Shown here piece by piece: positions 7,221 through 49,033 of a stretch of 64,000 nt of DNA (position 1 is the first letter of the stretch; every line of letters starts with the position of its first letter). The stretch is taken from contig JAQBRG010000003.1 in assembly GCA_028286615.1 (NCBI GenBank), forward strand, positions 147,406 through 211,405, in the 5' to 3' direction. Position numbers and translations under genes: made by a program. Source of the DNA: Parcubacteria group bacterium (GTDB lineage Bacteria > Patescibacteriota > Minisyncoccia > Phycocordibacterales > Phycocordibacteraceae). The notes below the pieces were generated by a model, which was not told where the DNA came from, did not search any database, and worked only from the letters and a program-made list of their open reading frames with translations.

Positions 7221-7276
7221 AGGCTTATGCCTCGGCACTCGTTATGCGGGTGCTTCTTCTTTATATAAACTGTAAA

Positions 7277-8461
7277 TTAGATTTCGACTGACTTGTTATC
7301 TAGAAATTGCACGGCATTAATAAGCGCTTCTGAAAATCGCATCAAGTCTGCGCCTCGCGTTTCCGGTCCCCAAGATACTCGAAGTGTAGAAACTGCTCGT
7401 GCTTCGTCATTCGTAAGAGCAAGGACAGCACGAGATCCTTCTTCGCTATCAGACTCGCACGCGCTCTTTGTAGAGACAGCAAATCCTGCTTCGTCTAGAA
7501 GTGCTGCAAGATAATCTGTATCACGTCCTATAAAGGAAAGGTTAAGGATGTGGGGTGCCTGTTCCTTCCCTTCGTTAACTTCAACCTTTTCTACTTTCTT
7601 AATACTCTCAAGCAAAGCCTTCCGAGAATTCAGTGCAGACTCTACAAACTTCTCTCTTCCTTTGTCAGCATCCTCAAGAGCAACAACGAATGCGGCCGCG
7701 AGCGCATGAGGTTCGGTACCTGGACGCATGCCTCGTTCCTGTCCTCCGCCACGTATTAAAGGAAGGAGCGGAACATGCCTTGGAGCAATTAATACTCCTA
7801 TGCCTCGGACTCCTCCAACTTTCTGTGCATCGAGCGAAAGCATGTCTGCCCCGAGACGATTTAACTCATAGGATGTAACAAGAGGAGCTTGGCTCGCATC
7901 AACATGGAGCGTTATGTGCTTTCCGTTTTCTTTGTTGTACGCATCAAGCACTCGGCGTACATCTCGTACGTCATACAGCGCACCTGTTTCTCCGCAGACT
8001 AAGTCCATGCATACAAGTACCGTGTTGGGCGTTAGAGAGCTCTTAAGAGCAGCAAGGTCAGCTGCTCCGTCTTTGAGGGTTATGGGAGAAAGAGATACGC
8101 CTCGTTTTCCGAGTATGGCTAGCGCTCCTCCAATAGAGGAGTGCGCGCTTGGCATATACAACACGTGCATGTCTTTTGCTTCCCTTCCTGCTTTAACCAA
8201 AGCTTTTATATGTCCGCGTATAGCTAGTGCATTGGCTTCTGTTGCGTTAGCGGTAAAGATAACGGCTTCTGCTTTGGTACCCGCGAGTTTTGCAATGCGC
8301 GCTCGTGCGTCTTCGAGAATGGCTTTAGCGGCTCTCCCTTCTGTATGTGGAGAAGAAGGATTTCCGAACGCATCGAGCGCAACATCAAATACCCGCTTCG
8401 CACGAGCTGAGGTTGGAGCAGCCGCTGCCCAGTCCAAATAGATTCTTTTACTGCCAAACAT
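7277..8461 (-). CDS. cysteine desulfurase (class V aminotransferase, NifS/IscS/SufS-like)
   Basis: PLP-lysine context SLDAQKVGGVRG, HTEGR motif, C-terminal active Cys region STKSACESDSEEGS. Confidence 0.85.
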   Translation of the reverse strand: MFGSKRIYLDWAAAAPTSARAKRVFDVALDAFGNPSSPHTEGRAAKAILEDARARIAKLAGTKAEAVIFTANATEANALAIRGHIKALVKAGREAKDMHVLYMPSAHSSIGGALAILGKRGVSLSPITLKDGAADLAALKSSLTPNTVLVCMDLVCGETGALYDVRDVRRVLDAYNKENGKHITLHVDASQAPLVTSYELNRLGADMLSLDAQKVGGVRGIGVLIAPRHVPLLPLIRGGGQERGMRPGTEPHALAAAFVVALEDADKGREKFVESALNSRKALLESIKKVEKVEVNEGKEQAPHILNLSFIGRDTDYLAALLDEAGFAVSTKSACESDSEEGSRAVLALTNDEARAVSTLRVSWGPETRGADLMRFSEALINAVQFLDNKSVEI

Positions 8462-10498: not shown

Positions 10499-10996
10499 TT
10501 GATGCCAAAGTATAAGTATAAAAACGATCGATGGAGTGAAGAGAATCTGCGCAAAACAGTTGCGGAGTCACTTAGCATTCGTGAGTGTCTAGAAAAATTG
10601 GGTCTATTTCCTGGAGGTGGAAACTATAGTCAGTATCATTTTCATATCAATAAATACGACATAGATACTTCTCATTACACTGGGCAGGGTTGGCGTAAGA
10701 ATAGAAGAGTGCCTAAAGAACCTTTATACAGTACAGAAGAATTATTTATTGCCGGTGTCCCACGTTCTCGGAGGAATCTCAAGAGGAGATTATACGGAGA
10801 AGGTTTCAAACTACCTAAGTGCGAAGAGTGCGGATGGGCTGAAGTAAGCCCAGACGGCCGCTTGCCTTTGGAGCTTGATCACATAAATGGAGACAATATG
10901 GATAACAGGATAGAGAACCTTCGTATCCTGTGCCCAAACTGTCATAGTTTGAAACCTACCCACAGAGGCAGTAACATGGGCAGAAGGCCGGGGTGA
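10499..10996 (+). CDS. HNH endonuclease (homing-endonuclease-like), AT-rich
   Basis: C-terminal HNH motif CEECGW...LELDHINGDNMDNRIENLRILCPNCHS. AT-rich codon usage. Sits between two tRNA genes, and its stop codon lies inside the 5' acceptor stem of tRNA-Leu. Confidence 0.8.
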   Translation: MMPKYKYKNDRWSEENLRKTVAESLSIRECLEKLGLFPGGGNYSQYHFHINKYDIDTSHYTGQGWRKNRRVPKEPLYSTEELFIAGVPRSRRNLKRRLYGEGFKLPKCEECGWAEVSPDGRLPLELDHINGDNMDNRIENLRILCPNCHSLKPTHRGSNMGRRPG

Positions 10997-11074
10997 TGAA
11001 ATTGGTTAGACATTACAGACTTAAACTCTGTCGGTAGCAATACCATGCGGGTTCGAGTCCCGCCCCCGGCACCA
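10987..11074 (+). tRNA. tRNA-Leu (TAA), type II with long variable arm
   Basis: Acceptor GCCGGGG/CCCCGGC, anticodon stem ACAGA/TCTGT with loop CTTAAAC, variable arm ~15 nt, T-arm GCGGG-TTCGAGT-CCCGC, CCA encoded. The alr ATG overlaps the terminal A. Confidence 0.8.
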
Positions 11075-12231
11075 TGGAATTTTTAAATAAACTTCGTGCT
11101 TTCAAGAACAGGTTCTCGCACTACAGCCCACTAGTAGAGGTTGGAATTTCCCGTGCGAATCTTCTGCACAATCTCCACACCTACCAGGAGTCTTATCCAA
11201 ATCTTAAGTTCGCACCGGTACTTAAAAGCAACGCATACGGACATGACTTAGGTCTTGTGGCTCGCCTACTTGATAAAGAGGACATCGCCTTTTTTATGGT
11301 GGACTCGTTCTATGAGGCACGAAGATTGAGAGGCGCGGGAGTACGCTCTCGTATTCTTGTTATGGGCTACGTGCGTCCAGAAGATATAGTTCGCACTTCT
11401 GTTACAAACGTAGACTTTGCTATAACTGACCTAACACAACTCAAAGAGGTCTCCACTCTTCTTACGCACCCAACACGTATACACCTCAAGCTCGATACTG
11501 GGATGCATCGCCAGGGCATAACTCCGGAAGACCTGGCTGAGGCTATTAGCTTAATAAAGCAGAATTCAAACCTAGAGCTTGTTGGTATCTGTTCTCATTT
11601 TGCAGACGCTGATACAGACAATTCTCCTCATGCCCGTATGCAGGTTAAACGCTTCCAGGAAGCTTCTCTAGTGCTGTCTGAGGCATTTCCTCATATCGAG
11701 TACAAACACCTCGCAGCAACCAAGGGAGTGCGGTATGCAGAGGAAGCAGGAACGAACGTGGCCCGTCCCGGTATCGGTCTCTATGGTTTTGATACTTCCC
11801 CCTCGCATAGCACGCCTCTTAAGCCAGTTCTTGAGCTTCGAGCGATTATTGGGTCTGTACGCACAGTGTCTCCTGGAGAGACGGTTGGATACAACGCGAC
11901 ACACGAGGTTACAAAGGAGTCTCGCATAGCAACTATCCCAGCTGGATACTTTGAAGGCGTAGACCGAAGACTGTCTGGAAAAGGCGTGGTGCTAGTTCGA
12001 GGAGTTGTTTGTCCTATTGTTGGGCGGGTATCCATGAACATGATTAGTGTAGACGTTACGGGCGTTCCTGAGGCAGCTCCAGGAGACTCTGTAGTCCTCA
12101 TCAGCCGCAACCCAGAGGATTTGAATAGCATTCCTCACATTGCCGAAGCCGTAAGCACCCCAGAGTACCGGGAGAGCGAGTACGTCCTTCTCACTCACAT
12201 TCCCCAGCATCTGAGACGTGTGGCTGAATAA
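11074..12231 (+). CDS. alr: alanine racemase
   Basis: PLP-lysine motif VLKSNAYGHD. 385 aa, typical Alr length and C-terminal domain. Confidence 0.9.
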   Translation: MEFLNKLRAFKNRFSHYSPLVEVGISRANLLHNLHTYQESYPNLKFAPVLKSNAYGHDLGLVARLLDKEDIAFFMVDSFYEARRLRGAGVRSRILVMGYVRPEDIVRTSVTNVDFAITDLTQLKEVSTLLTHPTRIHLKLDTGMHRQGITPEDLAEAISLIKQNSNLELVGICSHFADADTDNSPHARMQVKRFQEASLVLSEAFPHIEYKHLAATKGVRYAEEAGTNVARPGIGLYGFDTSPSHSTPLKPVLELRAIIGSVRTVSPGETVGYNATHEVTKESRIATIPAGYFEGVDRRLSGKGVVLVRGVVCPIVGRVSMNMISVDVTGVPEAAPGDSVVLISRNPEDLNSIPHIAEAVSTPEYRESEYVLLTHIPQHLRRVAE

Positions 12232-12564: not shown

Positions 12565-13680
12565 ATGGCCACCGTGCCTCACAGTACTGCGACTAAAGTG
12601 CGGATCGAGATTTATTGGATCACGGTCGCCCTCGTCACCCTCCTGCCGCTCGCTAGCCTGTCTCTGCCAACTCTTCTGATGGGCGTTCGGTTTACTGTCG
12701 TGCACTGGGCCTTCACGGTTCTGCTCGCGGCATACTACCTGACGTCAATCATGTTCGTTCAAACGAATGAACGAGGAGGTATCACAGTCCTCGAAAAGCC
12801 GGCACGAGAAGTTGGGCCGGGAATGTATTTCGTGCCCCGCTTCCTGATGGAACTCTTTACGATTCCAATCTCGACTCAGCAGGATCAATTCCCTGCTGAT
12901 CCGGAGCTCATCTCTAAAAGGCCGGATGAATTTGGCCTGAAAGAAAACGAGCTTCGTCCAATTCGTGCTACCACTGCTGCCGGAAGAATCGTTCCAGGTG
13001 ATGATCTTCAGAACGAAGACCCCCTTAACACGCGACTCACGCTTGAGCTCACCTACAGCATTCGCTGGAGACTCCGCGAAAAAGGATTCTTCGATATGTA
13101 TGTTTCTATCCCAGGCAGAACCTGGGACGACATGCGTACGGAAATCCGTCGGCAGATGCGCGATACGTCAGAATCTGAACTCGTTGAAGAAGTCAGTAAG
13201 CGGACGCCGTTCGAAGTGAACGGCGACATTCAGGTTCTTAACGCGGAGCTTGAACGCGAGGTCCAAACTGGAGTTTCTGATTGGGGTATCGATATCCTCG
13301 AGGCCCGACTGCAAACTCCGGATTTCTCGCACGACGTCAGCAAGGCTCTCTCCAACATTGCCACCAACCGCGCCGAAGCACAGGCAACTGCTGCTAAGGC
13401 GCAAGGTGAGCAACAACGTCTGATCCTTGAAGGCGAGGGTCAGGCTCAAGCCCGCGAAAGGCTGGCAACCGCTCGACAAGCTGAAATCGCCGCAGAAGGC
13501 AAAGGCCTCAAAGAAGCAGCTGATGCTTTGGAAATGCCCGGCGCCGACTACTACGCGGGCGAGATCGTCAAAACCGCTGTCGGTGAAGGTGACCTGATCA
13601 TCGGCACTGACGGCATATCCCAAATCGCCGGCCTCGGAAAATATATCTTCAAAGGCAAAAACGGAAAGGACAACACCTGA
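12565..13680 (+). CDS. SPFH/band-7 (stomatin/prohibitin/flotillin/HflKC family) membrane protein, GC-rich
   Basis: N-terminal TMs, SPFH core (VLEKPAREVGPGMYFVPRF...TQQDQF) and C-terminal Ala/Gln/Glu-rich coiled-coil. Visibly GC-richer than flanking core genes. Confidence 0.8.
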   Translation: MATVPHSTATKVRIEIYWITVALVTLLPLASLSLPTLLMGVRFTVVHWAFTVLLAAYYLTSIMFVQTNERGGITVLEKPAREVGPGMYFVPRFLMELFTIPISTQQDQFPADPELISKRPDEFGLKENELRPIRATTAAGRIVPGDDLQNEDPLNTRLTLELTYSIRWRLREKGFFDMYVSIPGRTWDDMRTEIRRQMRDTSESELVEEVSKRTPFEVNGDIQVLNAELEREVQTGVSDWGIDILEARLQTPDFSHDVSKALSNIATNRAEAQATAAKAQGEQQRLILEGEGQAQARERLATARQAEIAAEGKGLKEAADALEMPGADYYAGEIVKTAVGEGDLIIGTDGISQIAGLGKYIFKGKNGKDNT

Positions 13681-14483
13681 TGAGCATAAATGGCTCAGTG
13701 GTTGGTACGGTTGTCATCGTTCTCATCTGCATCGTTGCAGCGGGCGCGCTGATTCTAACCAGATGGAGGCCCGCACGGGGTATCCGTCTGCCGCGTATCA
13801 ACTTCAGGGGAATGTTTGGTGGCGGAGGCGGGCATGCGCCCGCAGCTGCTGCTCACGCCCCTGCCGCGCATGGTCATGGTGGACACGCGCCTTCTCCAGG
13901 CAACTGGGGTATGGTCGCCGTCCTCCTAGGCCTTGCGATACTGCTCGCCGCAATCGGTATCCTTTCGGGGAGATCGCCTTCCGTCGAGTCTATCGGCACC
14001 GTGGTCAAGAACGGCTGGTTCTGGATCCTACTTTCTTTCATCGTCCTGTTCGTGACCGCCTCGCTGATGCCCTCGGGCAAAGGTACGGCTTACACGCTCC
14101 TGGCGGTGATTGGGTTTCTCCTGCTTCTCGCCGCGGGAAGCACCGTGCAGGTGGCCGTTTCAGATACACAATCTGAGCATGCCGCACAGCAGACTGAACC
14201 TCCCATGAGCGATGCGTCGACCATGGGCCTGCATTGCCAAGGCGAAGGCGTACCTCTCAAGGAACTCGTTCCTGGAGAAGCTATCACCGTCTATCTGCCG
14301 GACTTTAAGGGAATTGAAAACTTCCCGAACGTCCGTAGCGGCCTCATCAGTCTTTGTTCCTTCAGTGACGAGACTCTGTGCGCAAGCCCAGATAACCCGC
14401 TGAAGCTCAGTTCTGAGCTCAGGGCCGTTAAGAATATTTCGGACCACAACATCAAGTATTCCTGCACCTATCATCCGTCGTAA
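13680..14483 (+). CDS. membrane protein with Gly/His/Ala-rich low-complexity linker and C-terminal soluble domain (possibly NfeD-like partner of the SPFH protein)
   Basis: ATG overlaps the upstream TGA (TGATG coupling). Several TM helices. GGGGGHAPAAAAHAPAAHGHGGHAPSPG tract. The NfeD assignment is inferred only from the common SPFH-NfeD operon arrangement. Confidence 0.5.
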   Translation: MSINGSVVGTVVIVLICIVAAGALILTRWRPARGIRLPRINFRGMFGGGGGHAPAAAAHAPAAHGHGGHAPSPGNWGMVAVLLGLAILLAAIGILSGRSPSVESIGTVVKNGWFWILLSFIVLFVTASLMPSGKGTAYTLLAVIGFLLLLAAGSTVQVAVSDTQSEHAAQQTEPPMSDASTMGLHCQGEGVPLKELVPGEAITVYLPDFKGIENFPNVRSGLISLCSFSDETLCASPDNPLKLSSELRAVKNISDHNIKYSCTYHPS

Positions 14484-14504
14484 GTACGCCGGACCAAAAC
14501 AAGA

Positions 14505-14542
14505 GTCGCCCCTGTCTTCGGACACGGGCGACTTTCTTTTAT
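14505..14542. terminator. bidirectional rho-independent terminator
   Basis: GTCGCCCCTGTC-TTCG-GACACGGGCGAC with T-runs on both strands. Closes the SPFH operon and the minus-strand pilin-like array. Confidence 0.75.
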
Positions 14543-14802
14543 CCAGCACCAACCGTAGCTTTCATAATCGCGATAATAGAGTTGGCAGCAAATATAATAG
14601 CGAGCCCCACAAGTCCCCAGATCATGTGCATCTTTCCATCGCTTCGTTTCTCTTCGTCTGCTGAGTTAGCAACGAACTGAAAGATTCCCCACAAGAACAG
14701 CACGAACGCTGCGAGACTAATAAGCGTAATAATCGGATAGAGGATAGCGTTCGAGAACTTCTCAATCATAGGAGAGAGTATGCTTGTGGTTGCTTGATTC
14801 AT
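14539..14802 (-). CDS. pilin-like small 2-TM protein, paralog A (no signal peptide)
   Basis: Shares the conserved helix-[S/A]DEEK..GK-helix module with the next four genes. Confidence 0.6.
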   Translation of the reverse strand: MNQATTSILSPMIEKFSNAILYPIITLISLAAFVLFLWGIFQFVANSADEEKRSDGKMHMIWGLVGLAIIFAANSIIAIMKATVGAG

Positions 14803-14865
14803 TCCCTAATACTAACAGAACCCCGCGCCAAGAGCGCGGGGTTCTGCGTGGAGAAATCTAACGTG

Positions 14866-15228
14866 CTAGCGAGTTGTTGGTGCTACAGGAAGCTCGCTTC
14901 CGCGTGGACTGTTGTTATCAAGCTTAACGGTTCCGGTAAGGATGTTAACGAGTCCCCAAACAGATGCCATAACGAAGAATCCAATAAGGCCGTAGAGCAT
15001 GAGGCTCTTTCCCTTGCCCTGCTTCTCTTCGTCAGAAGCTCCTGCAATGAAGTAGAGGAATACTCCCCAAATAAACACGATGAATGCGAGTGCGAATACG
15101 AGAGGCACTGCAACCGTGTTAATGAGGTTGATAACAAAAGCCGCGAGGCTTTGAACGCTAGTAACCGTCTGCGCGGACGCAAGAGCGGGGAAAAGGAGTG
15201 CAGCACCGATGTAACCAATTTTCTTCAT
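14866..15228 (-). CDS. pilin-like small 2-TM protein, paralog B (signal peptide ...ALASA|QT)
   Basis: Conserved module FALAFIVFIWGVFLYFIAGASDEEKQGKGKSLMLYGLIGFFVMASVWGLVNIL. Confidence 0.65.
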   Translation of the reverse strand: MKKIGYIGAALLFPALASAQTVTSVQSLAAFVINLINTVAVPLVFALAFIVFIWGVFLYFIAGASDEEKQGKGKSLMLYGLIGFFVMASVWGLVNILTGTVKLDNNSPRGSELPVAPTTR

Positions 15229-15314
15229 AGTAATGATAGGTAGTAAGTACTTCTTTAGAATAGACCGGAATGGAAACGCGTCAATAGACCTCTAGCGACT
15301 ATGGGGAAAAGATT

Positions 15315-15764
15315 TTACCCCTCCGCGTAGTCGAAATCAGAGGTACAAGGTGCTCCATCAAATGTTGGGATGCAGGGACGATTCTGTGAACCGAACCCGA
15401 ATGTGTTAACGAGCAAGTTAACAAGTCCCCATAGAGAAATCATAACGGCAAATCCGATGATACCGAATGTGATGAACTTAACGCCGTCTGCACGCTTCTC
15501 TTCGTTAGCAGCACCTGCGATGAAATAATTGAAAACTCCGAAAAGGAAGACAATGAATGCAACCGCAAAGATTAATGGAACGAGTACGCGGTTAAGGAAC
15601 GATACAAAGGAGGTGATGAGCGAACTTACGTTCGTTGCATCAATCTTTTGCGCGAACGTAACAAGCGGCATGGAGACAAGGAGTGCGAGTGCGCCTAAGC
15701 GGTAGAAGTTCTTCATATAAGGACAGACTAGCAGGGATATGGTCTTGAACAAGCTGTTATGCAC
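15315..15764 (-). CDS. pilin-like small 2-TM protein, paralog C (true start probably internal Met at about 15716)
   Basis: Module FAVAFIVFLFGVFNYFIAGAANEEKRADGVKFITFGIIGFAVMISLWGLVNLL. Signal peptide LALLVSMPLVTFA|QK. Overlaps paralog D by 8 nt. Confidence 0.65.
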   Translation of the reverse strand: MHNSLFKTISLLVCPYMKNFYRLGALALLVSMPLVTFAQKIDATNVSSLITSFVSFLNRVLVPLIFAVAFIVFLFGVFNYFIAGAANEEKRADGVKFITFGIIGFAVMISLWGLVNLLVNTFGFGSQNRPCIPTFDGAPCTSDFDYAEG

Positions 15765-16236
15765 CTGAGCCGGCTACTGCACCCGCAAAACTGCTTACCA
15801 GGAGGTTCACAAGCCCCCAGACCGAGAACATCACGAAGAACGCGATAACCCCCCAAAGCATCAGATTCTTGCCCTTTGCGCGACCCTCCTCGCTTTGATC
15901 CAAGAAGAAGAATTGCACCATACCGATTAAGAAGGCTATAAATGTAAGCGCGTATATGAGCGGGACGACGCTGTTACTTACGAAAGGCACTATCACTTTG
16001 TATACCAAGCGTGCAAAAGTATTATTTACCTTTCCTGTTGAAACCACCTCGCTAACCTCGCAGTTATTGTTAAAACTACAATCGCTTACGCAGCGATAGC
16101 CGCCTTCATAAAAACGACAAGAGGTGCCATCAGGACAAGCACTTACGCACGTCTCAGCTGCTTGAACACTTGGTAGGTTCGGAAAGGCGAAAACACCCAG
16201 AAGGAGTATCGATAGACCAAAAAAACGCAGACTCAT
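15757..16236 (-). CDS. pilin-like small 2-TM protein, paralog D with Cys-rich insert
   Basis: Signal peptide, then CVSACPDGTSCRFYEGGYRCVSDCSFNNNC, then the conserved module. Overlaps paralog E by 4 nt. Confidence 0.65.
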   Translation of the reverse strand: MSLRFFGLSILLLGVFAFPNLPSVQAAETCVSACPDGTSCRFYEGGYRCVSDCSFNNNCEVSEVVSTGKVNNTFARLVYKVIVPFVSNSVVPLIYALTFIAFLIGMVQFFFLDQSEEGRAKGKNLMLWGVIAFFVMFSVWGLVNLLVSSFAGAVAGSGA

Positions 16237-16622
16237 AGAGTATTTGCTGTTGCTTGGATAACAGCACTAATCGCCTGGGCTCCAAGGAGAATAAGTCCGC
16301 CGATAACAGTCCAGATGAGCATGGAACGTGCATTCTTAAGCTCTTCCGCATTTCCCTGCGCGAGCACGAATTTAAACCCGGTGTATACCAGCATAAGTAC
16401 TAGGACAATAGTACCTATCTCAATAACCGCGCTCAGAATAACGTTCAACAAGTCGTTGAGATTATTAATATTCTTAAGCGGATTCTGTAAACCTGTTGAT
16501 GGTCCAGGATTAACCGAGTCAATCTCTTTATTTCCTGGATTCACTGAGTCCACCTCAGCTGCAGCGAAGAAAGGTACTGAGAATGTAGTTGCCAGAAGAA
16601 AGATAAATAGAATTCGATACAT
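16233..16622 (-). CDS. pilin-like small 2-TM protein, paralog E (divergent; start taken at internal Met MYRILFIF)
   Basis: Signal peptide, tandem EVDSVNPGNK/EIDSVNPGPS repeat, divergent version of the 2-helix module. ATG lies 5 nt after the stop of the upstream SBP-like gene. Confidence 0.55.
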   Translation of the reverse strand: MYRILFIFLLATTFSVPFFAAAEVDSVNPGNKEIDSVNPGPSTGLQNPLKNINNLNDLLNVILSAVIEIGTIVLVLMLVYTGFKFVLAQGNAEELKNARSMLIWTVIGGLILLGAQAISAVIQATANTL

Positions 16623-16626
16623 AGTG

Positions 16627-17934
16627 TTAGTGGAGTGCGGCATCAATACTTTCGCTTGCGGACAGCAGCGCCTCATGCACTTGCTGGCGTCCGCTCGTTA
16701 TGTTTCCAATCATAGCAGCGAAGACACTATCGGTTTGTGGAGGTGCTGGGGACAGCCACACCTTTGCAACCAGCACTTCTGGATAAAAGACCGGTTCATA
16801 AAGATCGTCTAGCGAAGGCGTGAGCGCTGAGCGAAGAGCAGGAGCCATGCCAAGCGCACGAGCAACACCAGGAGCGATTGCTTTTCCAGTTAGTCCTGAG
16901 GCAACACGATACGCGCCGGTTGCATTTCGAGCAGTCTTTGGAATTACAAAAGCGTACACGCGTCCATACGTAGTGCGTGTGGCTGCGGTTGAAGGTTGTG
17001 GCACTACGCTCATATCAAAATCAAGATTCGGGTTCGCAGCTTTGAGTGAGTTGCGTTCTGATGCGTAGCCGAAGTAGAGCGCCAGGTCTCCTGAGAGAAA
17101 GGCTTGTCTCGCATCTGGGAGCGAACGATTCCAGGAATACACGGTTTTTGCAGGATTAGAAAACTCAGTATAGAAGCGAATAGCTGATTCGCTTCCACTG
17201 GTGCCGAAGTTTCCGTCTGTTTGTTTTGAGAGGGTTGAATACACTCCTCCTCCAGCGTCTCTGCTTGTTATGGCAGCTCCAGCTTGAAGAAGAAGGAGCG
17301 AGAGGATAGCCCGAGAGTTCCCTCCGTTCTCATAACTTCCAAACGAAACGAGACTGCGCGTTATGGTCTGGCCATTCGTTTGCTGCACGATACGAGGTGC
17401 AAGACCCATAACCGCTTCCCAGGTCTGAGGAGGCTCAGCAACACCGCTGGCAGACAATATAGAGCGGTTGTAGTACATAACAAGCGGATCAATAGCGAAT
17501 GGAATGCCGTAGCTTCCCGCACTGGTTAGATATATTTCTGAAACCGGAAGGAAAGAATCCTTGAAGGTACGTTCTGAGATGGTGGAGAGCGGTATGGGAG
17601 AAAGCTTGTTCTCTTCTTGAGCTAACTGCTCTTGCGATATAAGAAGGAGGTCGGGACCGTTGCCTGAAGCAATGGCATCTGCAACCTCCCCATCGAAGTT
17701 CGAGATTGATTTCTCTACGTACGAAACGGTTGCATATTCCTGATGGTCACGTCTGAGTTCGCTTAGTTGTACTTGGAGCACTTCTTCTGGAAGCGTTCCC
17801 CAAATAGTAACGGCACCTAGTGGCTTTACGCTTGTACCGAAACCTTTGAAGGTTGCAAAGAGAACAAGGCCGATAACCGCAAGAAAGCCGAAGACGGAGA
17901 GAAGGATAATCTGAAAGGGTCGTTGGGTTTGCAT
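16627..17934 (-). CDS. membrane-anchored extracellular solute-binding-protein-like protein (SBP family 1-like)
   Basis: N-terminal TM anchor. Body resembles sugar-type periplasmic binding proteins (DLLLISQEQL, GIPFAIDPLVMYYN). No permease or ATPase adjacent. Confidence 0.65.
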   Translation of the reverse strand: MQTQRPFQIILLSVFGFLAVIGLVLFATFKGFGTSVKPLGAVTIWGTLPEEVLQVQLSELRRDHQEYATVSYVEKSISNFDGEVADAIASGNGPDLLLISQEQLAQEENKLSPIPLSTISERTFKDSFLPVSEIYLTSAGSYGIPFAIDPLVMYYNRSILSASGVAEPPQTWEAVMGLAPRIVQQTNGQTITRSLVSFGSYENGGNSRAILSLLLLQAGAAITSRDAGGGVYSTLSKQTDGNFGTSGSESAIRFYTEFSNPAKTVYSWNRSLPDARQAFLSGDLALYFGYASERNSLKAANPNLDFDMSVVPQPSTAATRTTYGRVYAFVIPKTARNATGAYRVASGLTGKAIAPGVARALGMAPALRSALTPSLDDLYEPVFYPEVLVAKVWLSPAPPQTDSVFAAMIGNITSGRQQVHEALLSASESIDAALH

Positions 17935-17940
17935 AGAAAG

Positions 17941-18471
17941 TTACGGAGCTGTAAACACAATACTATAGTGGTGTGGGCCTGCACGGAAATCTTTAACCTT
18001 ATGGAAGCCCCCTGTAATAAAAAGTTCTTCAGCAACATGCTCGGGTACCACGCGATGCGGAAGCGGACCCATACCTCCATATGCTCCTGCCCAATCTATA
18101 ACAAGTAACCGTCCTCCCGGCTTTAAGATGCGTTTGATTTCTGCAATTGCTTCCTGTTGGTGATCAAGTTGAAAGAGCGTGTTCGAAAGAATAACCACAT
18201 CAAGTGCGTGGTCTTTGAGCTTCGTACCTCCTGCTGTCTCGAAGTTCCCCCAAACGGTTTCGATATTCTTGAATCCGCGCTGCTGTGCGAGATCTCGAAT
18301 ATGCTTAAGAATATCTTCTTGGATATCAACGGCATACACGCGTCCCTCGTCTCCAACCATAGCGGCTGCAGCAACAGCGTAGTGTCCAGACCCAGCACCC
18401 AGGTCTCCCACTTTCATACCTTCTTTAAGACCCAGCTGCAGAACATTGCTCTGCGGGTTAGAGAAATTCAT
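17941..18471 (-). CDS. class I SAM-dependent methyltransferase
   Basis: Motif I VGDLGAGSG, motif post-I VYAVDIQED, LLVIDW. Start placed at internal Met because the longer ORF would overlap the upstream gene. Confidence 0.7.
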   Translation of the reverse strand: MNFSNPQSNVLQLGLKEGMKVGDLGAGSGHYAVAAAAMVGDEGRVYAVDIQEDILKHIRDLAQQRGFKNIETVWGNFETAGGTKLKDHALDVVILSNTLFQLDHQQEAIAEIKRILKPGGRLLVIDWAGAYGGMGPLPHRVVPEHVAEELFITGGFHKVKDFRAGPHHYSIVFTAP

Positions 18472-18532
18472 TACTATAAAAATAGCACGGGCCACGCGAT
18501 GCGCAGCCCGTGTTGGGGACGAAATACGTATT

Positions 18533-28353: not shown

Positions 28354-28893
28354 ATGCGAACCTTGCGAGAGATACTTTCATTCGTCATCCTCGCCGTCAT
28401 CATTGTTGTTCCTATCCGTTTGTTCATCGCTCAACCATTCGTTGTTGAAGGTGAAAGCATGCATCCTACGTTTGAAAGCGCTGACTATCTCATCGTTGAC
28501 GAACTCTCCTACCATCTCCACGCACCGCAACGCGGCGACGTTATTGTTTTTAGATATCCAAACGATCCGAAAGTGTTTTACATAAAGCGCATCATCGGTC
28601 TTCCTGGAGAAACCGTGAGTGTTAAGGATGGGAAGACAACTGTTAAGAAAGTTGATGGTACTGAAATCGCACTTGATGAGCCGTACGTAGTCTCTGAAGA
28701 CGCCACATACACCAACGACAGCGTTCTTGGTGCAGACCAGTACTTTGTTATGGGAGACAACCGTCCTCGCAGCTCAGATTCTCGTATCTGGGGACCACTC
28801 CCTAAGAAAGATATTGTAGGTCGTGCTTTCATACGCCTTCTTCCTGCAGGATCAATAGGTATTCTTCCCGGAAGAATCGAACTACCACAATGA
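28354..28893 (+). CDS. lepB: signal peptidase I
   Basis: S26 motifs GESMHPT (Ser box), RGDVIVF, GDNRPRSSDSR. Confidence 0.85.
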   Translation: MRTLREILSFVILAVIIVVPIRLFIAQPFVVEGESMHPTFESADYLIVDELSYHLHAPQRGDVIVFRYPNDPKVFYIKRIIGLPGETVSVKDGKTTVKKVDGTEIALDEPYVVSEDATYTNDSVLGADQYFVMGDNRPRSSDSRIWGPLPKKDIVGRAFIRLLPAGSIGILPGRIELPQ

Positions 28894-39473: not shown

Positions 39474-40094
39474 CTAGTTTTGCAGCTCTTCTTTTGAAAT
39501 AGCTCCCTCTCGCAGTACGTTTAACCTTTCTCCCGTAAAGGAGACAACGGTTGAAGGGATTCCTCCCGAAAGCGGTCCTGCATCAATAACAAGATCAATG
39601 TGCGGAATATGAGAACCAAACTGTTCTAGAATCTCGCGCACCGTGCTTCCTGTTATGAGTCCGCTCCTGTTCGCAGACGTTGCTGTATAGGGTCTCTTAA
39701 ACGCTTTTGAAAGTGCAGCTGTAAAAGGGTGGTTTGGAACTCGTATGCCGAGCGTGCCATGGAGCATCAATTCTTCTGGTAGCTTGTCTATTCCGGGTAG
39801 CACCAATGTTAGAGGTCCTGGCAGATACCGGCTCGCGAGATGCTTTGCCTGTTCTGAAAGAATTGCGTAGCTTTCTATAGAAGCCACATCAGGCACTATT
39901 ACAGAGATTGGCTTCTTCTTTTCTCTTCCCTTTAGATCACGGAGTTTTTCAAGCGCACGAGTATTAAGTGCGTCTACAGCTAGTCCGTAAATAGTATCTG
40001 TTGGGTAGAGAACGATACCCGCTTTACTCAAAGTTTTCGCTGCGAGTTTCGCTGCTTTCTCTACTCCCACGTCTTCAAGATTGACGATCTTCAT
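39474..40094 (-). CDS. tsaC: L-threonylcarbamoyladenylate synthase (YrdC/Sua5 family)
   Basis: VLYPTDTIYGLAVDA signature. Start set at internal Met MKIVNLEDVG because the longer ORF overlaps tRNA-Val on the opposite strand. Confidence 0.8.
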   Translation of the reverse strand: MKIVNLEDVGVEKAAKLAAKTLSKAGIVLYPTDTIYGLAVDALNTRALEKLRDLKGREKKKPISVIVPDVASIESYAILSEQAKHLASRYLPGPLTLVLPGIDKLPEELMLHGTLGIRVPNHPFTAALSKAFKRPYTATSANRSGLITGSTVREILEQFGSHIPHIDLVIDAGPLSGGIPSTVVSFTGERLNVLREGAISKEELQN

Positions 40095-40139
40095 AGGTTG
40101 AATGGTAGCTCTAAACGCGCTATTCTGCGAGCATTCTTG

Positions 40140-40212
40140 AAGCGCGATTAGCTCAATTGGTAGAGCGTTTCTTTGACGTAGAAAAGGTAGCAAGTTCGAA
40201 TCTTGCATCGCG
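40140..40212 (+). tRNA. tRNA-Val (GAC)
   Basis: Acceptor GCGCGAT/ATCGCGC, D-arm GCTC-AATTGGTA-GAGC, anticodon stem TTTCT/AGAAA with loop TTGACGT, T-arm GCAAG-TTCGAAT-CTTGC. Confidence 0.85.
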
Positions 40213-40224
40213 CACACAGATTTT

Positions 40225-47326: not shown

Positions 47327-49033
47327 CTAGAAACTTGGCGGAGGGGGTGGCGGTGGAAACAGCTCCCTCATCCGAGCTTGCCATTCTTCCTCAGATTCAT
47401 TTTCAAACCTTGCCGTTGAAGGCGGTGGGGGTGGGGGTTCGAAAGCTGGGACTTCAGGTGTCTGCTGAAGAGGAAAACGTTCTGCGATAATCTTCTCTCC
47501 AAGACTCCTGAATCTGTCTTTCCCTTCAGACTGATACTCTTCGACGCTATCAATCCTTCTACCCAGATCGTAAGAAGACTCCGTTCCTGAATTTATTAAG
47601 CCGTGTCTTTCCTTCCAATTTAGGAGCGCAGCAGTTGGATCGCCTCCTTTGTAATACTCAACTTTCGAGGGTCTCTGTTCTGGATACTTCGTGTAATACG
47701 ACTCCCAAAAGTCTTGAGAGGATACCGTGTTTTCTGCTTCTTTGAAGCGAGTTCCTGAACTTTCAATGATACTGTCAGCAACTTCTTGTTTTCTTCGCTT
47801 AACATCCTCAGGACCAGAGTCACGATAATATTTTCCGAAATCTTCAGCGTTACGAGAATTTCTTAAGACAGCTTGTTGGAGCTTAGGGTCTTGAACACCG
47901 AAGCGGTCTTTTAGTATCTGTGCAGCTGCTTCATGATTATCCTTTCGGTCGTCATATGTATCTAGCCACGCATAGAAATCATCTGAGTCTAGAAGAGTGT
48001 CTATATTATTCTTAACCTCTTCGTTCTCAATTGGCTGTTTATGCTCATCAAGTGCATAGCGCGATCCTGTCTCGCTATCTACTTGCGCTTCTGCAGGGAT
48101 AAATACAATACCAGCATTAATATTCATTCCTCGATCAAGTTCAGAGTCTGAAAGAATCCAGGTATCGTTATTCTTAGTGTCTCCCCCTTCAGATAACTTT
48201 CCAATGAAGCGATGCTCAGCTGCAATATGAGCCGAGGGAAAGGCAATAAATATCTCATTGCTTTTCTCGGAACCGTAATATTTGTCTGCTACTTCTTCAG
48301 TGGCAACATGGACTGCCGCACGATCTGCATAGCCATCAAATGCGCTCGATAGAGAGGTCTCAAGACGCTTTTCTGCATCATCCCTGGATTCTGCTTTATC
48401 AAGCTTCAGCGCCTTAGCGACGGCTTCTTCTTTTCCATGTTCCATTGCAGTTATGGCGAGAGACGATTTCAACTTTCCGTCTTGCATCATCTGCATGAAG
48501 CCGTTGGCATATTCTCCCTTCCCCTTAGTGTGCTCAAACATACCTGTATGATCTCTGATACCCTGTCGTGTTACATGGGTAACCATCGCGCTCGGAAAAC
48601 GCTTTAGCAAAAGTGCATAATCTTCCATGGAAAGAGATGCGAGATGTTCCTCGGTAAAGGCCTTTTGCATCTCTTCAGGGTTTCCAGTGGATTCAGCCCA
48701 ACGTTGTTTTTCTTTAGAGTAGAACTCGTCTAGAAGGCGCTTTGGTTCCGAGAACTGAGAAGGGATACTCGAGTCAGGAGCATCCGGAGAGAGTCTTTTC
48801 TTAACCTCAGTCCATTTATTTAAATCTTGTACCTTATCAAGACCTGTTTCATTAAGAGACGTTAGATCTCCCTCAAGCGCTTGATACGTATTAACAGTTT
48901 CTTGAGCAGATTCGCTAAGACTTGATGCGCTGCTCTCTGCGCGAGATTCACGTATCTTTGCAGCTACTTCATTTCTCTCCTCTGCGTGTTCTTGCTTGGA
49001 GAACTCTTTAATAAATTTGGGCAGCTCGGACAT
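47327..49033 (-). CDS. acidic 568-aa soluble protein with two C-terminal poly-proline tracts, hypothetical
   Basis: No TM or signal peptide. Highly charged. C-terminus AFEPPPPPPSTARFENESEEEWQARMRELFPPPPPPPSF. Confidence 0.6.
   Translation of the reverse strand: MSELPKFIKEFSKQEHAEERNEVAAKIRESRAESSASSLSESAQETVNTYQALEGDLTSLNETGLDKVQDLNKWTEVKKRLSPDAPDSSIPSQFSEPKRLLDEFYSKEKQRWAESTGNPEEMQKAFTEEHLASLSMEDYALLLKRFPSAMVTHVTRQGIRDHTGMFEHTKGKGEYANGFMQMMQDGKLKSSLAITAMEHGKEEAVAKALKLDKAESRDDAEKRLETSLSSAFDGYADRAAVHVATEEVADKYYGSEKSNEIFIAFPSAHIAAEHRFIGKLSEGGDTKNNDTWILSDSELDRGMNINAGIVFIPAEAQVDSETGSRYALDEHKQPIENEEVKNNIDTLLDSDDFYAWLDTYDDRKDNHEAAAQILKDRFGVQDPKLQQAVLRNSRNAEDFGKYYRDSGPEDVKRRKQEVADSIIESSGTRFKEAENTVSSQDFWESYYTKYPEQRPSKVEYYKGGDPTAALLNWKERHGLINSGTESSYDLGRRIDSVEEYQSEGKDRFRSLGEKIIAERFPLQQTPEVPAFEPPPPPPSTARFENESEEEWQARMRELFPPPPPPPSF

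Follow-up and report, generated by a model that had tools for sequence, protein, structure and literature searches.

A compact set of seven co-directional genes runs from position 18471 down to position 14539 on the minus strand of a stretch of 64,000 nucleotides (contig JAQBRG010000003.1, positions 147,406 to 211,405, assembly GCA_028286615.1), which we refer to as a whole as the window and whose source is a Parcubacteria/Paceibacteria (Kaiserbacteria-related) bacterium, the host of what is a conserved chromosomal cluster. The set comprises, in this order, a class-I S-adenosylmethionine (SAM)-dependent methyltransferase (MTase), a membrane-anchored solute-binding protein (SBP) identical to MDB5264745.1 (locus tag JWN64_316), and five small pilin-like proteins, pilE, pilD, pilC, pilB and pilA, whose genes together occupy 14539-16622. 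All seven genes are present as an earlier note on this DNA had described them (Table 1); how far its reading of them as a single operon for a diversified array of conjugative-type pilins can be upheld is a different matter, which we take up along with the evidence.

The five small proteins belong to one family. Each of them scores above the gathering cut-off (26.6 bits) of the Pfam hidden Markov model (HMM) for T4SS_pilin, PF18895 (pilA 41.7, pilB 40.7, pilC 27.7, pilD 32.4 and pilE 32.8 bits), and with E values from 3e-6 to 1e-10 this five-gene match is far beyond chance, thereby supporting their proposed assignment to the 'T4SS pilin' class of candidate phyla radiation (CPR) bacteria, that is, to the VirB2-like pilin family of Patescibacteria named after the T4SS (type IV secretion system). 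The likeness to VirB2/TrbC that had been suggested alongside did not materialize as a match to the corresponding model, PF04956 (cut-off 27.9 bits), below which all five proteins remain, the best being pilE with 19.7 bits (E 0.001), followed by pilA with 15.4 and pilB with 13.7. The best NCBIfam match of all five, at 21.9-33.9 bits and hence sub-threshold (cut-off 40), is NF045849, the 'Mbov_0395 family pilin-like conjugal transfer protein', with pilA scoring the 33.9 bits; the next-nearest curated families, TrbC, Mbov_0395 pilin-like and IncI1 TraQ, are all conjugation pilins and all sub-threshold. A role of pilA as a VirB3-like protein was considered and rejected, because pilA has the best PF18895 score of the five and no VirB3 match.

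An alignment of the five tandem paralogs, which are mutually 23-33% identical, reveals a common build in which a short charged loop is flanked by two hydrophobic helices, in agreement with the architecture proposed earlier. Judged by eye and by simple rules, pilB, pilC, pilD and pilE carry putative signal peptides (n-region positive, core hydrophobic, site of the AxA type), while pilA consists of the two-helix core alone and has no such leader. The AlphaFold2 model of pilB (38 orthologs, pLDDT 76) predicts the expected helical hairpin, with a signal helix at residues 2-19, helices at 25-62 and 67-97, a loop at 63-66 and a disordered tail. Canonical VirB2/TrbC pilins polymerize into an extracellular pilus, and some of them are cyclised. 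The ending WGLVN[IL]L, which had been attributed to the whole set, is found in pilB, pilC and pilD, whereas pilA and pilE end otherwise.

Outside the common core the paralogs differ markedly. In pilE the signal peptide is followed by a variable N-terminal region, a conserved NPL..(I/L)..L motif and the core, and the N-terminal region does contain the tandem decapeptide noticed earlier, in the form of two imperfect DSVNPG-type repeats; among relatives, pilE ranges from 85 to 338 aa, its extensions being low-complexity Gly/Pro/Ser/Thr repeats or Cys-rich modules, and its N-terminal part is 27% identical compared with 57% for the core. The six-Cys insert of pilD, ETCVSACPDGTSCRFYEGGYRCVSDCSFNNNC, is likewise real and is lineage-specific, six Cys being present in just 3 of 50 orthologs; several of the pilD orthologs listed have no signal peptide. 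In pilC, the signal peptide and core are followed by a C-terminal tail with a Cys pair, and two Cys occur in 26/50 orthologs, placed in the C-terminal tail among the orthologs listed. The most conserved paralog is pilB, which is Cys-free and of nearly constant length, and whose orthologs (58-73% identical) are in part already named 'pilin' by NCBI.

Table 1. Genes and putative regulatory features of the cluster (coordinates in the window)
Feature	Coordinates	Strand	Details
MTase, class-I SAM-dependent methyltransferase	17941..18471	-	176 aa
SBP, membrane-anchored family-1 (MalE/GacH-like) solute-binding protein	16627..17934	-	435 aa
pilE, PF18895 pilin-like, position 1	16233..16622	-	129 aa, E 7.5e-8
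pilD, PF18895 pilin-like, position 2	15757..16236	-	159 aa, E 1e-7
pilC, PF18895 pilin-like, position 3	15315..15716	-	133 aa, E 3e-6
pilB, PF18895 pilin-like, position 4	14866..15228	-	120 aa, E 2.5e-10
pilA, PF18895 pilin-like, last position	14539..14802	-	87 aa, E 1.3e-10
GC-rich hairpin directly 5' of the MTase gene	18486..18512	-	-23.9 kcal/mol, z -3.7
Extended -10-like element TGCTATTTT	18479..18487	-	7 nt 5' of MTase ATG
Extended -10-like element TGCTAGTCT	15725..15733	-	8 nt 5' of pilC ATG
Sigma-70-like promoter TTGACG-N16-TATTCT before pilB	15257..15284	-	consensus match
Hairpin 3' of pilB	14815..14847	-	15 predicted pairs, -30 kcal/mol, z -5.3
Extended -10-like element TGTTAGTAT	14809..14817	-	6 nt 5' of pilA ATG
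Hairpin between pilA and the convergent gene 13680-14483	14504..14535	.	-29.8 kcal/mol, z -6.3

A further observation comes from the relatives of the cluster, for which a collection with one genome per GTDB species was scanned with an alignment of SBP orthologs and the best 80 of 555 matching stretches were examined with 10-kb flanks. In 80/80 loci, wherever the contig reaches, gyrA is followed by the MTase, the SBP and then five to seven same-strand PF18895-like genes, so that the synteny of methyltransferase, binding protein and pilins anticipated for related genomes is borne out; three more distant members, whose SBP is 38-39% and whose GyrA is 64-68% identical to that of the window, keep the SBP together with four to seven pilin genes. 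The order within the array is equally constant: position 1 is pilE-like in 77/77 loci, position 2 pilD-like in 61 of 74, position 3 pilC-like in 69 of 74 and position 4 pilB-like in 64 of 73, the last gene is pilA-like in nearly all complete arrays, and a short additional pilB-like copy precedes pilA in roughly a quarter of the loci. Sequence comparison thus identifies the five paralogs as ancient positional orthologs in the order E-D-C-B-A, and the notion of a simply diversified array consequently gives way to that of five old genes whose order has been kept across the lineage. Median pairwise identities are 83% for GyrA, 68% for the MTase and 53% for the SBP, and for the pilin cores 67% (pilB), 57% (pilE), 55% (pilA), 52% (pilD) and 50% (pilC), the pilB core being therefore more conserved than the SBP; the N-terminal parts of pilE, pilD and pilC reach 25-27%. 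Together with the regulatory signals described below, this pattern points to old sub-functionalization of the paralogs rather than recent turnover.

Two peculiarities of the database records may be mentioned here. Many of the records that carry the cluster (L003, L007, L014 and others) are titled 'uncultured Candidatus Saccharibacteria bacterium' and one (L040) 'Bacillota bacterium', so that the submitters' taxon labels look unreliable. Moreover, the metagenome-assembled genome BP5.bin105 has the MTase-SBP-pilin cluster on two different contigs (L077, L080), which suggests a strain mixture or a duplication.

The SBP was rightly recognized as a membrane-anchored binding protein: it exceeds the cut-offs of SBP_bac_1 (70.6 bits, E 3e-19) and SBP_bac_8 (69 bits, E about 1e-19), and its N-terminal membrane helix (residues 6-28) has neither a Cys nor a lipobox. 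A Foldseek search with its AlphaFold2 model, a mediocre one (pLDDT 64.6, poor at residues 184-271 and 377-402), places GacH, Thermotoga MalE and MBP on top (E about 1e-16, TM about 0.5), and hhalign aligns it with E. coli MalE at 93.7% probability over the N-lobe only. Two acidic residues, E102 and D149, which do not vary among the 20 sequences aligned, coincide with the MalE ligand residues D65 and E111, as indirect evidence for binding of a small ligand between the lobes; the ligand would most likely be carbohydrate-like. The membrane helix is about as conserved as the globular part, which is compatible with, but no proof of, a specific membrane partner. The MTase, too, is what it had been taken for: it matches Methyltransf_31 (77.5 bits, E 1e-21) and Methyltransf_11 (63.2 bits), carries the glycine-rich SAM motif DLGAGSG, and has as its nearest solved structure 3DH0, an uncharacterised SAM MTase (E 3e-22). 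An equivalog-level NCBIfam match for the MTase was not found, the ArsM/UbiE-like hits being sub-threshold.

The first genes of the cluster are packed in a manner that suggests a common message. In the window, 6 nt separate the MTase stop from the SBP start and 4 nt the SBP stop from the pilE start, while pilE and pilD overlap by 4 nt (ATGA), all of which agrees with the tight spacing and the D/E overlap reported before. This packing recurs among the relatives, where the median gaps are 2 nt from MTase to SBP (79 loci), 2 nt from SBP to pilE and -1 nt from pilE to pilD, and where 85%, 96% and 100% of loci, respectively, have these gaps within 15 nt, the last of them falling within +/-4 nt in 74/74; the spacer between gyrA and the MTase is long and variable (median 426 nt, 8 to 2076 nt). 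The 8-nt overlap formerly proposed between pilC and pilD hinges on a GTG start of pilC at 15764, which we have dropped in favor of the conserved ATG at 15716 that gives a canonical signal peptide and a pilD-pilC spacer of 40 nt (median 38 nt over 74 loci).

Beyond this packing, conserved promoter-like elements inside the cluster and a conserved hairpin after pilB argue against the simple single operon of the earlier note. The motif TGNTANNNT, of which the three extended -10-like elements of Table 1 are the instances in the window, recurs among related loci: 41 of 46 have it 5-8 nt ahead of the MTase ATG, 36/40 at 5-9 nt ahead of the pilC ATG and 39/50 ahead of the pilA ATG (at 6-8 nt in 38 of these). 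Its position so close to the start codons suggests leaderless transcripts. The copy ahead of the MTase would accordingly serve as the promoter of a leaderless MTase-SBP-pilE-pilD transcript, that ahead of pilC, which has a TTGTTC -35-like hexamer upstream at 15747-15752, as a pilC promoter, and that ahead of pilA as the promoter of a leaderless pilA message. The putative promoter of pilB is of another kind, since 45 of 50 pilC-pilB spacers from relatives contain TTGACN-N16-18-TANNNT at some 35 nt from the start codon, and the spacer itself is unstructured (z +1.9).

Hairpins delimit these candidate units. The spacer between pilB and pilA contains a GC-rich hairpin (z below -2 in 92% of 49 loci) and the region 3' of the last pilin folds in the same way (z below -2 in 88% of 48 loci), in both cases with pairing kept while the sequence differs, and no comparable structure follows pilD or pilC when the spacers of related loci are folded. 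We infer from these patterns that the hairpin after pilB acts as a terminator or attenuator and the one after pilA as the bidirectional terminator, a strong one, that had been proposed at this place. As for the hairpin 5' of the MTase gene, an equivalent with other sequence and kept pairing is present in most of the 30 relatives listed; it is probably the terminator of an upstream small gene, and a role as operator is unlikely because its arms vary among genomes while the pairing stays. The simplest reading of these signals would be one of nested units, in which an MTase-SBP-pilE-pilD transcript runs on into pilC and pilB, additional starts lie at pilC and pilB, transcription stops or is attenuated after pilB, and pilA forms a separate short unit.

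Two further sequence patterns were noticed in this context. A pyrimidine-rich TYTCCMC motif (e.g. TTTCTCCAC, TTTTCCCCA) stands directly past the pilC and pilB stops (15295-15314 and 14849-14865 in the window), some 42-47 nt upstream of the next -10-like element, and occurs in 25/50 pilC-pilB and 31/50 pilB-pilA spacers of loci L002-L081; it may serve as an upstream promoter element or as a site for a regulator. Of 53 gene starts in the window, about 17 are preceded at 5-8 nt by a -10-like hexamer, as against only 6 with a Shine-Dalgarno-like motif, so that leaderless mRNAs may be common in the source genome.

The surroundings of the cluster are those of a housekeeping region. When nearly all non-overlapping open reading frames (ORFs) of at least 150 aa in the window (about 45) were scanned against Pfam, the matches were to ClpB, IF-2, alanine racemase, an SPFH protein, GyrA, S1 and Pth, and further to signal peptidase I (28354-28893), FtsA, FtsZ, a class-I tRNA synthetase, LepA, MurJ and ribonucleotide reductase, about a dozen ORFs remaining without a match. 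No VirB3, VirB4, VirB6, VirD4 or TrsD, no BPD_transp permease and no ABC_tran ATPase was found among these scanned ORFs, in agreement with the earlier statement that the window holds no VirB4, VirB6 or VirD4 gene. Likewise, 100 proteins encoded in the 10-kb flanks of 10 relatives, when classed by Pfam, showed the same housekeeping neighbors with no recurring T4SS, permease or ATPase family. The cluster is thus not part of a local ABC-transporter locus, a finding that would have counted against the earlier reading. The cluster-carrying Parcubacteria bacterium genomes C7867-001, -004, -007 and -008 are listed as VirB4-positive in a survey of PF18895 arrays (Quinonero-Coronel et al. 2025, PMC12102498, Table S1), which also reports that virB4 in Paceibacteria tends to adjoin dnaA and dnaN. 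Since these relatives are VirB4-positive and nothing of the kind was found locally, the T4SS machinery most probably resides elsewhere in their genomes.

Some features of the window are recorded for completeness. The gene convergent with pilA (13680-14483, plus strand) encodes a 267-aa protein made up of a hydrophobic segment at the N-terminus, a low-complexity stretch rich in His, Ala and Gly, more hydrophobic segments and a C-terminal part in which Cys occurs; no Pfam or NCBIfam model matches it, and in some relatives its place beside the SPFH gene is conserved. A 568-aa ORF at 47327-49033 (minus strand) likewise has no Pfam or NCBIfam match. The last base of tRNA-Leu(taa) (10987-11074) is the first base of the alanine racemase ATG (11074-12231), and an HNH-endonuclease ORF (10499-10996) lies between tRNA-Cys and tRNA-Leu, overlapping the latter by 10 nt. 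Finally, tRNA-Val (40142-40215, plus strand) overlaps the 5' end of a Sua5/YrdC-family ORF called from GTG (39474-40217, minus strand), the true start of which is probably further downstream.

The reading that we favor, to which we assign a probability slightly better than even, is that the cluster supplies one major and four specialized VirB2-like subunits to a T4SS encoded elsewhere, together with a co-produced, outward-facing and probably carbohydrate-binding receptor that aids host recognition or substrate capture. On this account the pilins would be inserted into the membrane, four of them being trimmed by the signal peptidase I encoded at 28354-28893, and would then pass to a VirB4/VirB6-type T4SS encoded elsewhere, which would assemble from them a pilus or conduit for contact with the host cell. 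pilB, which may also be fed by read-through from upstream and reach the highest expression, would be the major structural subunit, because it is the most conserved paralog, of near-constant length, has a putative sigma-70-type promoter of its own and a hairpin after it, and is expected to be the most highly expressed. pilE, pilD and pilC would be minor or tip subunits whose variable, repeat- or Cys-rich extracellular parts face the partner cell, and pilA, a core without a leader, might be a membrane-resident base or initiator unit. The SBP, which would share its tightly packed message with pilE and pilD and be anchored outside on the membrane, would most likely bind a carbohydrate-like ligand of the host or its wall, acting as a receptor or adhesin with the minor pilins and not within a local ABC importer. 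The MTase would be co-expressed and can be lost. As a whole, the cluster may be the contact system between an epibiont and its host that the earlier note had envisaged. A stronger version, in which the pilus or T4SS is ligand-directed, a dedicated tethered MalE-like receptor being produced at a fixed ratio to the minor pilins so as to recognize a host glycan or to capture a host-derived nutrient where the cells touch, appears to us improbable on present evidence.

A number of observations weigh against this proposal. No T4SS gene was found in the 14 kb to one side of the cluster or the 45 kb to the other, and relatives show none within 10 kb either, for which reason the link to a T4SS is drawn only from family membership and the literature. 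Direct homology to canonical VirB2 is not demonstrated, whereas membership in PF18895 is: Foldseek gave no significant match, hhalign of each positional family against seven annotated plasmid VirB2/TrbC proteins yielded probabilities of at most 21%, and no pilin appeared among the solved structures matched by pilB orthologs or pilA in sequence and profile searches. The promoter and leaderless assignments are consensus matches. The SBP model is of low confidence in the second lobe, MalE W62 is replaced in the SBP, and the protein might work for an ABC importer whose genes lie elsewhere. One of the three more distant relatives (L090) keeps the SBP and seven pilin-like genes without the MTase, whose place between gyrA and the SBP is filled by an IS200/IS605-type Y1 transposase gene on the opposite strand (7226-7882 of that locus). 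Lastly, synteny across the lineage extends to the whole neighborhood, with gyrA, IF-2, S1, Pth and other genes, so that conserved adjacency alone is weak evidence of joint function.

This last point nourishes the rival that fares best, namely that the genes are neighbors without a joint function, the SBP belonging to a distant sugar ABC importer and the MTase to housekeeping, all of them sharing a compact old transcription unit whose tight packing would come from compaction of the genome. The synteny that embraces plainly unrelated housekeeping genes, the normal family-1 fold of the SBP with its two retained MalE-like acidic ligand positions and the dispensability of the MTase in L090 all fit such a view, as does the fact that orphan SBP genes are common in monoderm bacteria. 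What makes us consider it rather unlikely nonetheless is that the gaps joining MTase, SBP, pilE and pilD stay at -4 to +10 nt in 85-100% of loci when the gyrA-MTase spacer is so variable, that neither a permease nor an ATPase recurs within 10 kb in relatives or appears among the scanned window ORFs, and that SBP and pilins have stayed together where a transposase replaced the MTase.

Less probable still, in our judgment, is a T4SS-independent envelope complex of resident two-helix proteins and the SBP, for instance an uptake channel that depends on the binding protein, or a membrane scaffold. The lack of T4SS genes nearby and the unproven VirB2 homology would leave room for it, pilA and several listed pilD orthologs have no signal peptide, a fixed set of five individually conserved paralogs resembles a hetero-oligomer, and conservation of the SBP is as high in the membrane helix as in the globular region; against this, PF18895 members elsewhere lie inside T4SS clusters and are essential alongside VirB4 and VirB6, the nearest curated families are all conjugation pilins, and we know of no transporter class with two-helix subunits of the pilin type. 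Recent tandem duplication of a rapidly diversifying array for antigenic or host-range variation, as proposed in Bartonella/Anaplasma and suggested for Patescibacteria, is highly improbable and was rejected on positional orthology: the low mutual identity of the paralogs, the N-terminal parts of pilE, pilD and pilC, hypervariable in length and sequence, and the sixth or seventh copies in some relatives might speak for it, but every position keeps an ortholog of its own, in unchanged order, throughout the lineage, core conservation is 50-67%, and the paralogs have regulatory signals that are both distinct and conserved.

These results bear on what is known of T4SSs in Patescibacteria, which, together with their unusual VirB2-like arrays, have proved essential to growth as an epibiont in the single species tested. 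The survey cited above counted 441 arrays of 2-11 PF18895 pilin genes spread over 383 Patescibacteria assemblies, frequently adjoining virB4, at their most numerous in Microgenomatia and Saccharimonadia and with about 25% identity between the pilins of an array (PMC12102498); Southlakia epibionticum ML1 has an essential six-pilin array inside its likewise essential T4SS cluster (Wang et al. 2023, PMC10633639), and a 2025 review describes the T4SSs of Patescibacteria as unique among monoderms in their potential for conjugative pili. The pilin array is therefore of a known kind and the pilin reading, while correct, is not new, so that the earlier note's impression of an undescribed system appears to stand only for the coupling to SBP and MTase. 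The survey mentions no SBPs (under 'substrate-binding', 'solute-binding' or 'SBP'), and a full-text literature search joining Patescibacteria/CPR, VirB2/T4SS/pilin and binding protein found no report. What appears unreported is the fixed architecture of five paralogs, their putatively nested regulation, and the conserved presence of a translation-coupled SBP, with the MTase, in a large lineage of Paceibacteria.

The implications differ with the reading adopted. Five fixed and individually regulated pilins argue for a hetero-oligomeric structure of one major and several specialized subunits, not for interchangeable variants, and in some 555 matching stretches of the lineage the array would be hard-wired to an orphan receptor of the sugar-binding type. 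Should the ligand-directed version be true, it would represent the first binding-protein-coupled T4SS pilus, and the ligand of the SBP, which can be sought biochemically, would offer a handle on an essential patescibacterial T4SS function; should the coupling be merely positional, the cluster would be one more example of the published kind of array.

Several known systems are close to the cluster. In ChvE, the sugar SBP that activates VirA in Agrobacterium, and PrgZ, the pheromone-binding family-5 SBP of pCF10, it has counterparts in which a receptor of the periplasmic-binding fold is connected with a T4SS; unlike the SBP described here, these work in signaling or in uptake by way of separate ABC transporters, without being co-translated with pilins, and the window SBP, for its part, has no sensor kinase or permease with it. 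With the family-1 sugar SBPs MalE and GacH it shares SBP_bac_1/8 membership, the fold match and the two acidic ligand positions, and it differs from them in sitting on an uncleaved N-terminal helix, in having no local permease or ATPase, in being only about 16-19% identical and in the loss of W62. The pilins resemble VirB2/TrbC (PF04956; the Agrobacterium T-pilin and RP4 TrbC) in their small size, their putative Sec leader with an AxA-Q type site and their two helices with a short loop, whereas they differ in a longer, acidic/basic loop (DEEK..GK), part of them are extended at the N- or C-terminus by long variable regions, virB3 and virB4 are not adjacent and the scores fall below the PF04956 cut-off. 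Mbov_0395 of Mycoplasma integrative and conjugative elements (ICEs; NF045849) is likewise a two-helix protein of about 80 aa and of wall-less monoderm T4SS origin, but the window pilins lie off any ICE and number five paralogs. Several divergent tandem VirB2 copies are also found at the T4SS loci of Bartonella and Anaplasma, where they are thought to provide antigenic variation; those of the window, in contrast, are old, ordered and individually conserved. The closest parallel is with the PF18895 arrays of other Patescibacteria, which belong to the same Pfam family and are likewise chromosomal sets of tandem divergent paralogs in a monoderm, ultra-small host. From these the array of the window stands apart in lying away from a T4SS locus, in being joined to SBP and MTase genes and in being made up, within the class Paceibacteria, of fixed positional orthologs with putative promoters of their own.

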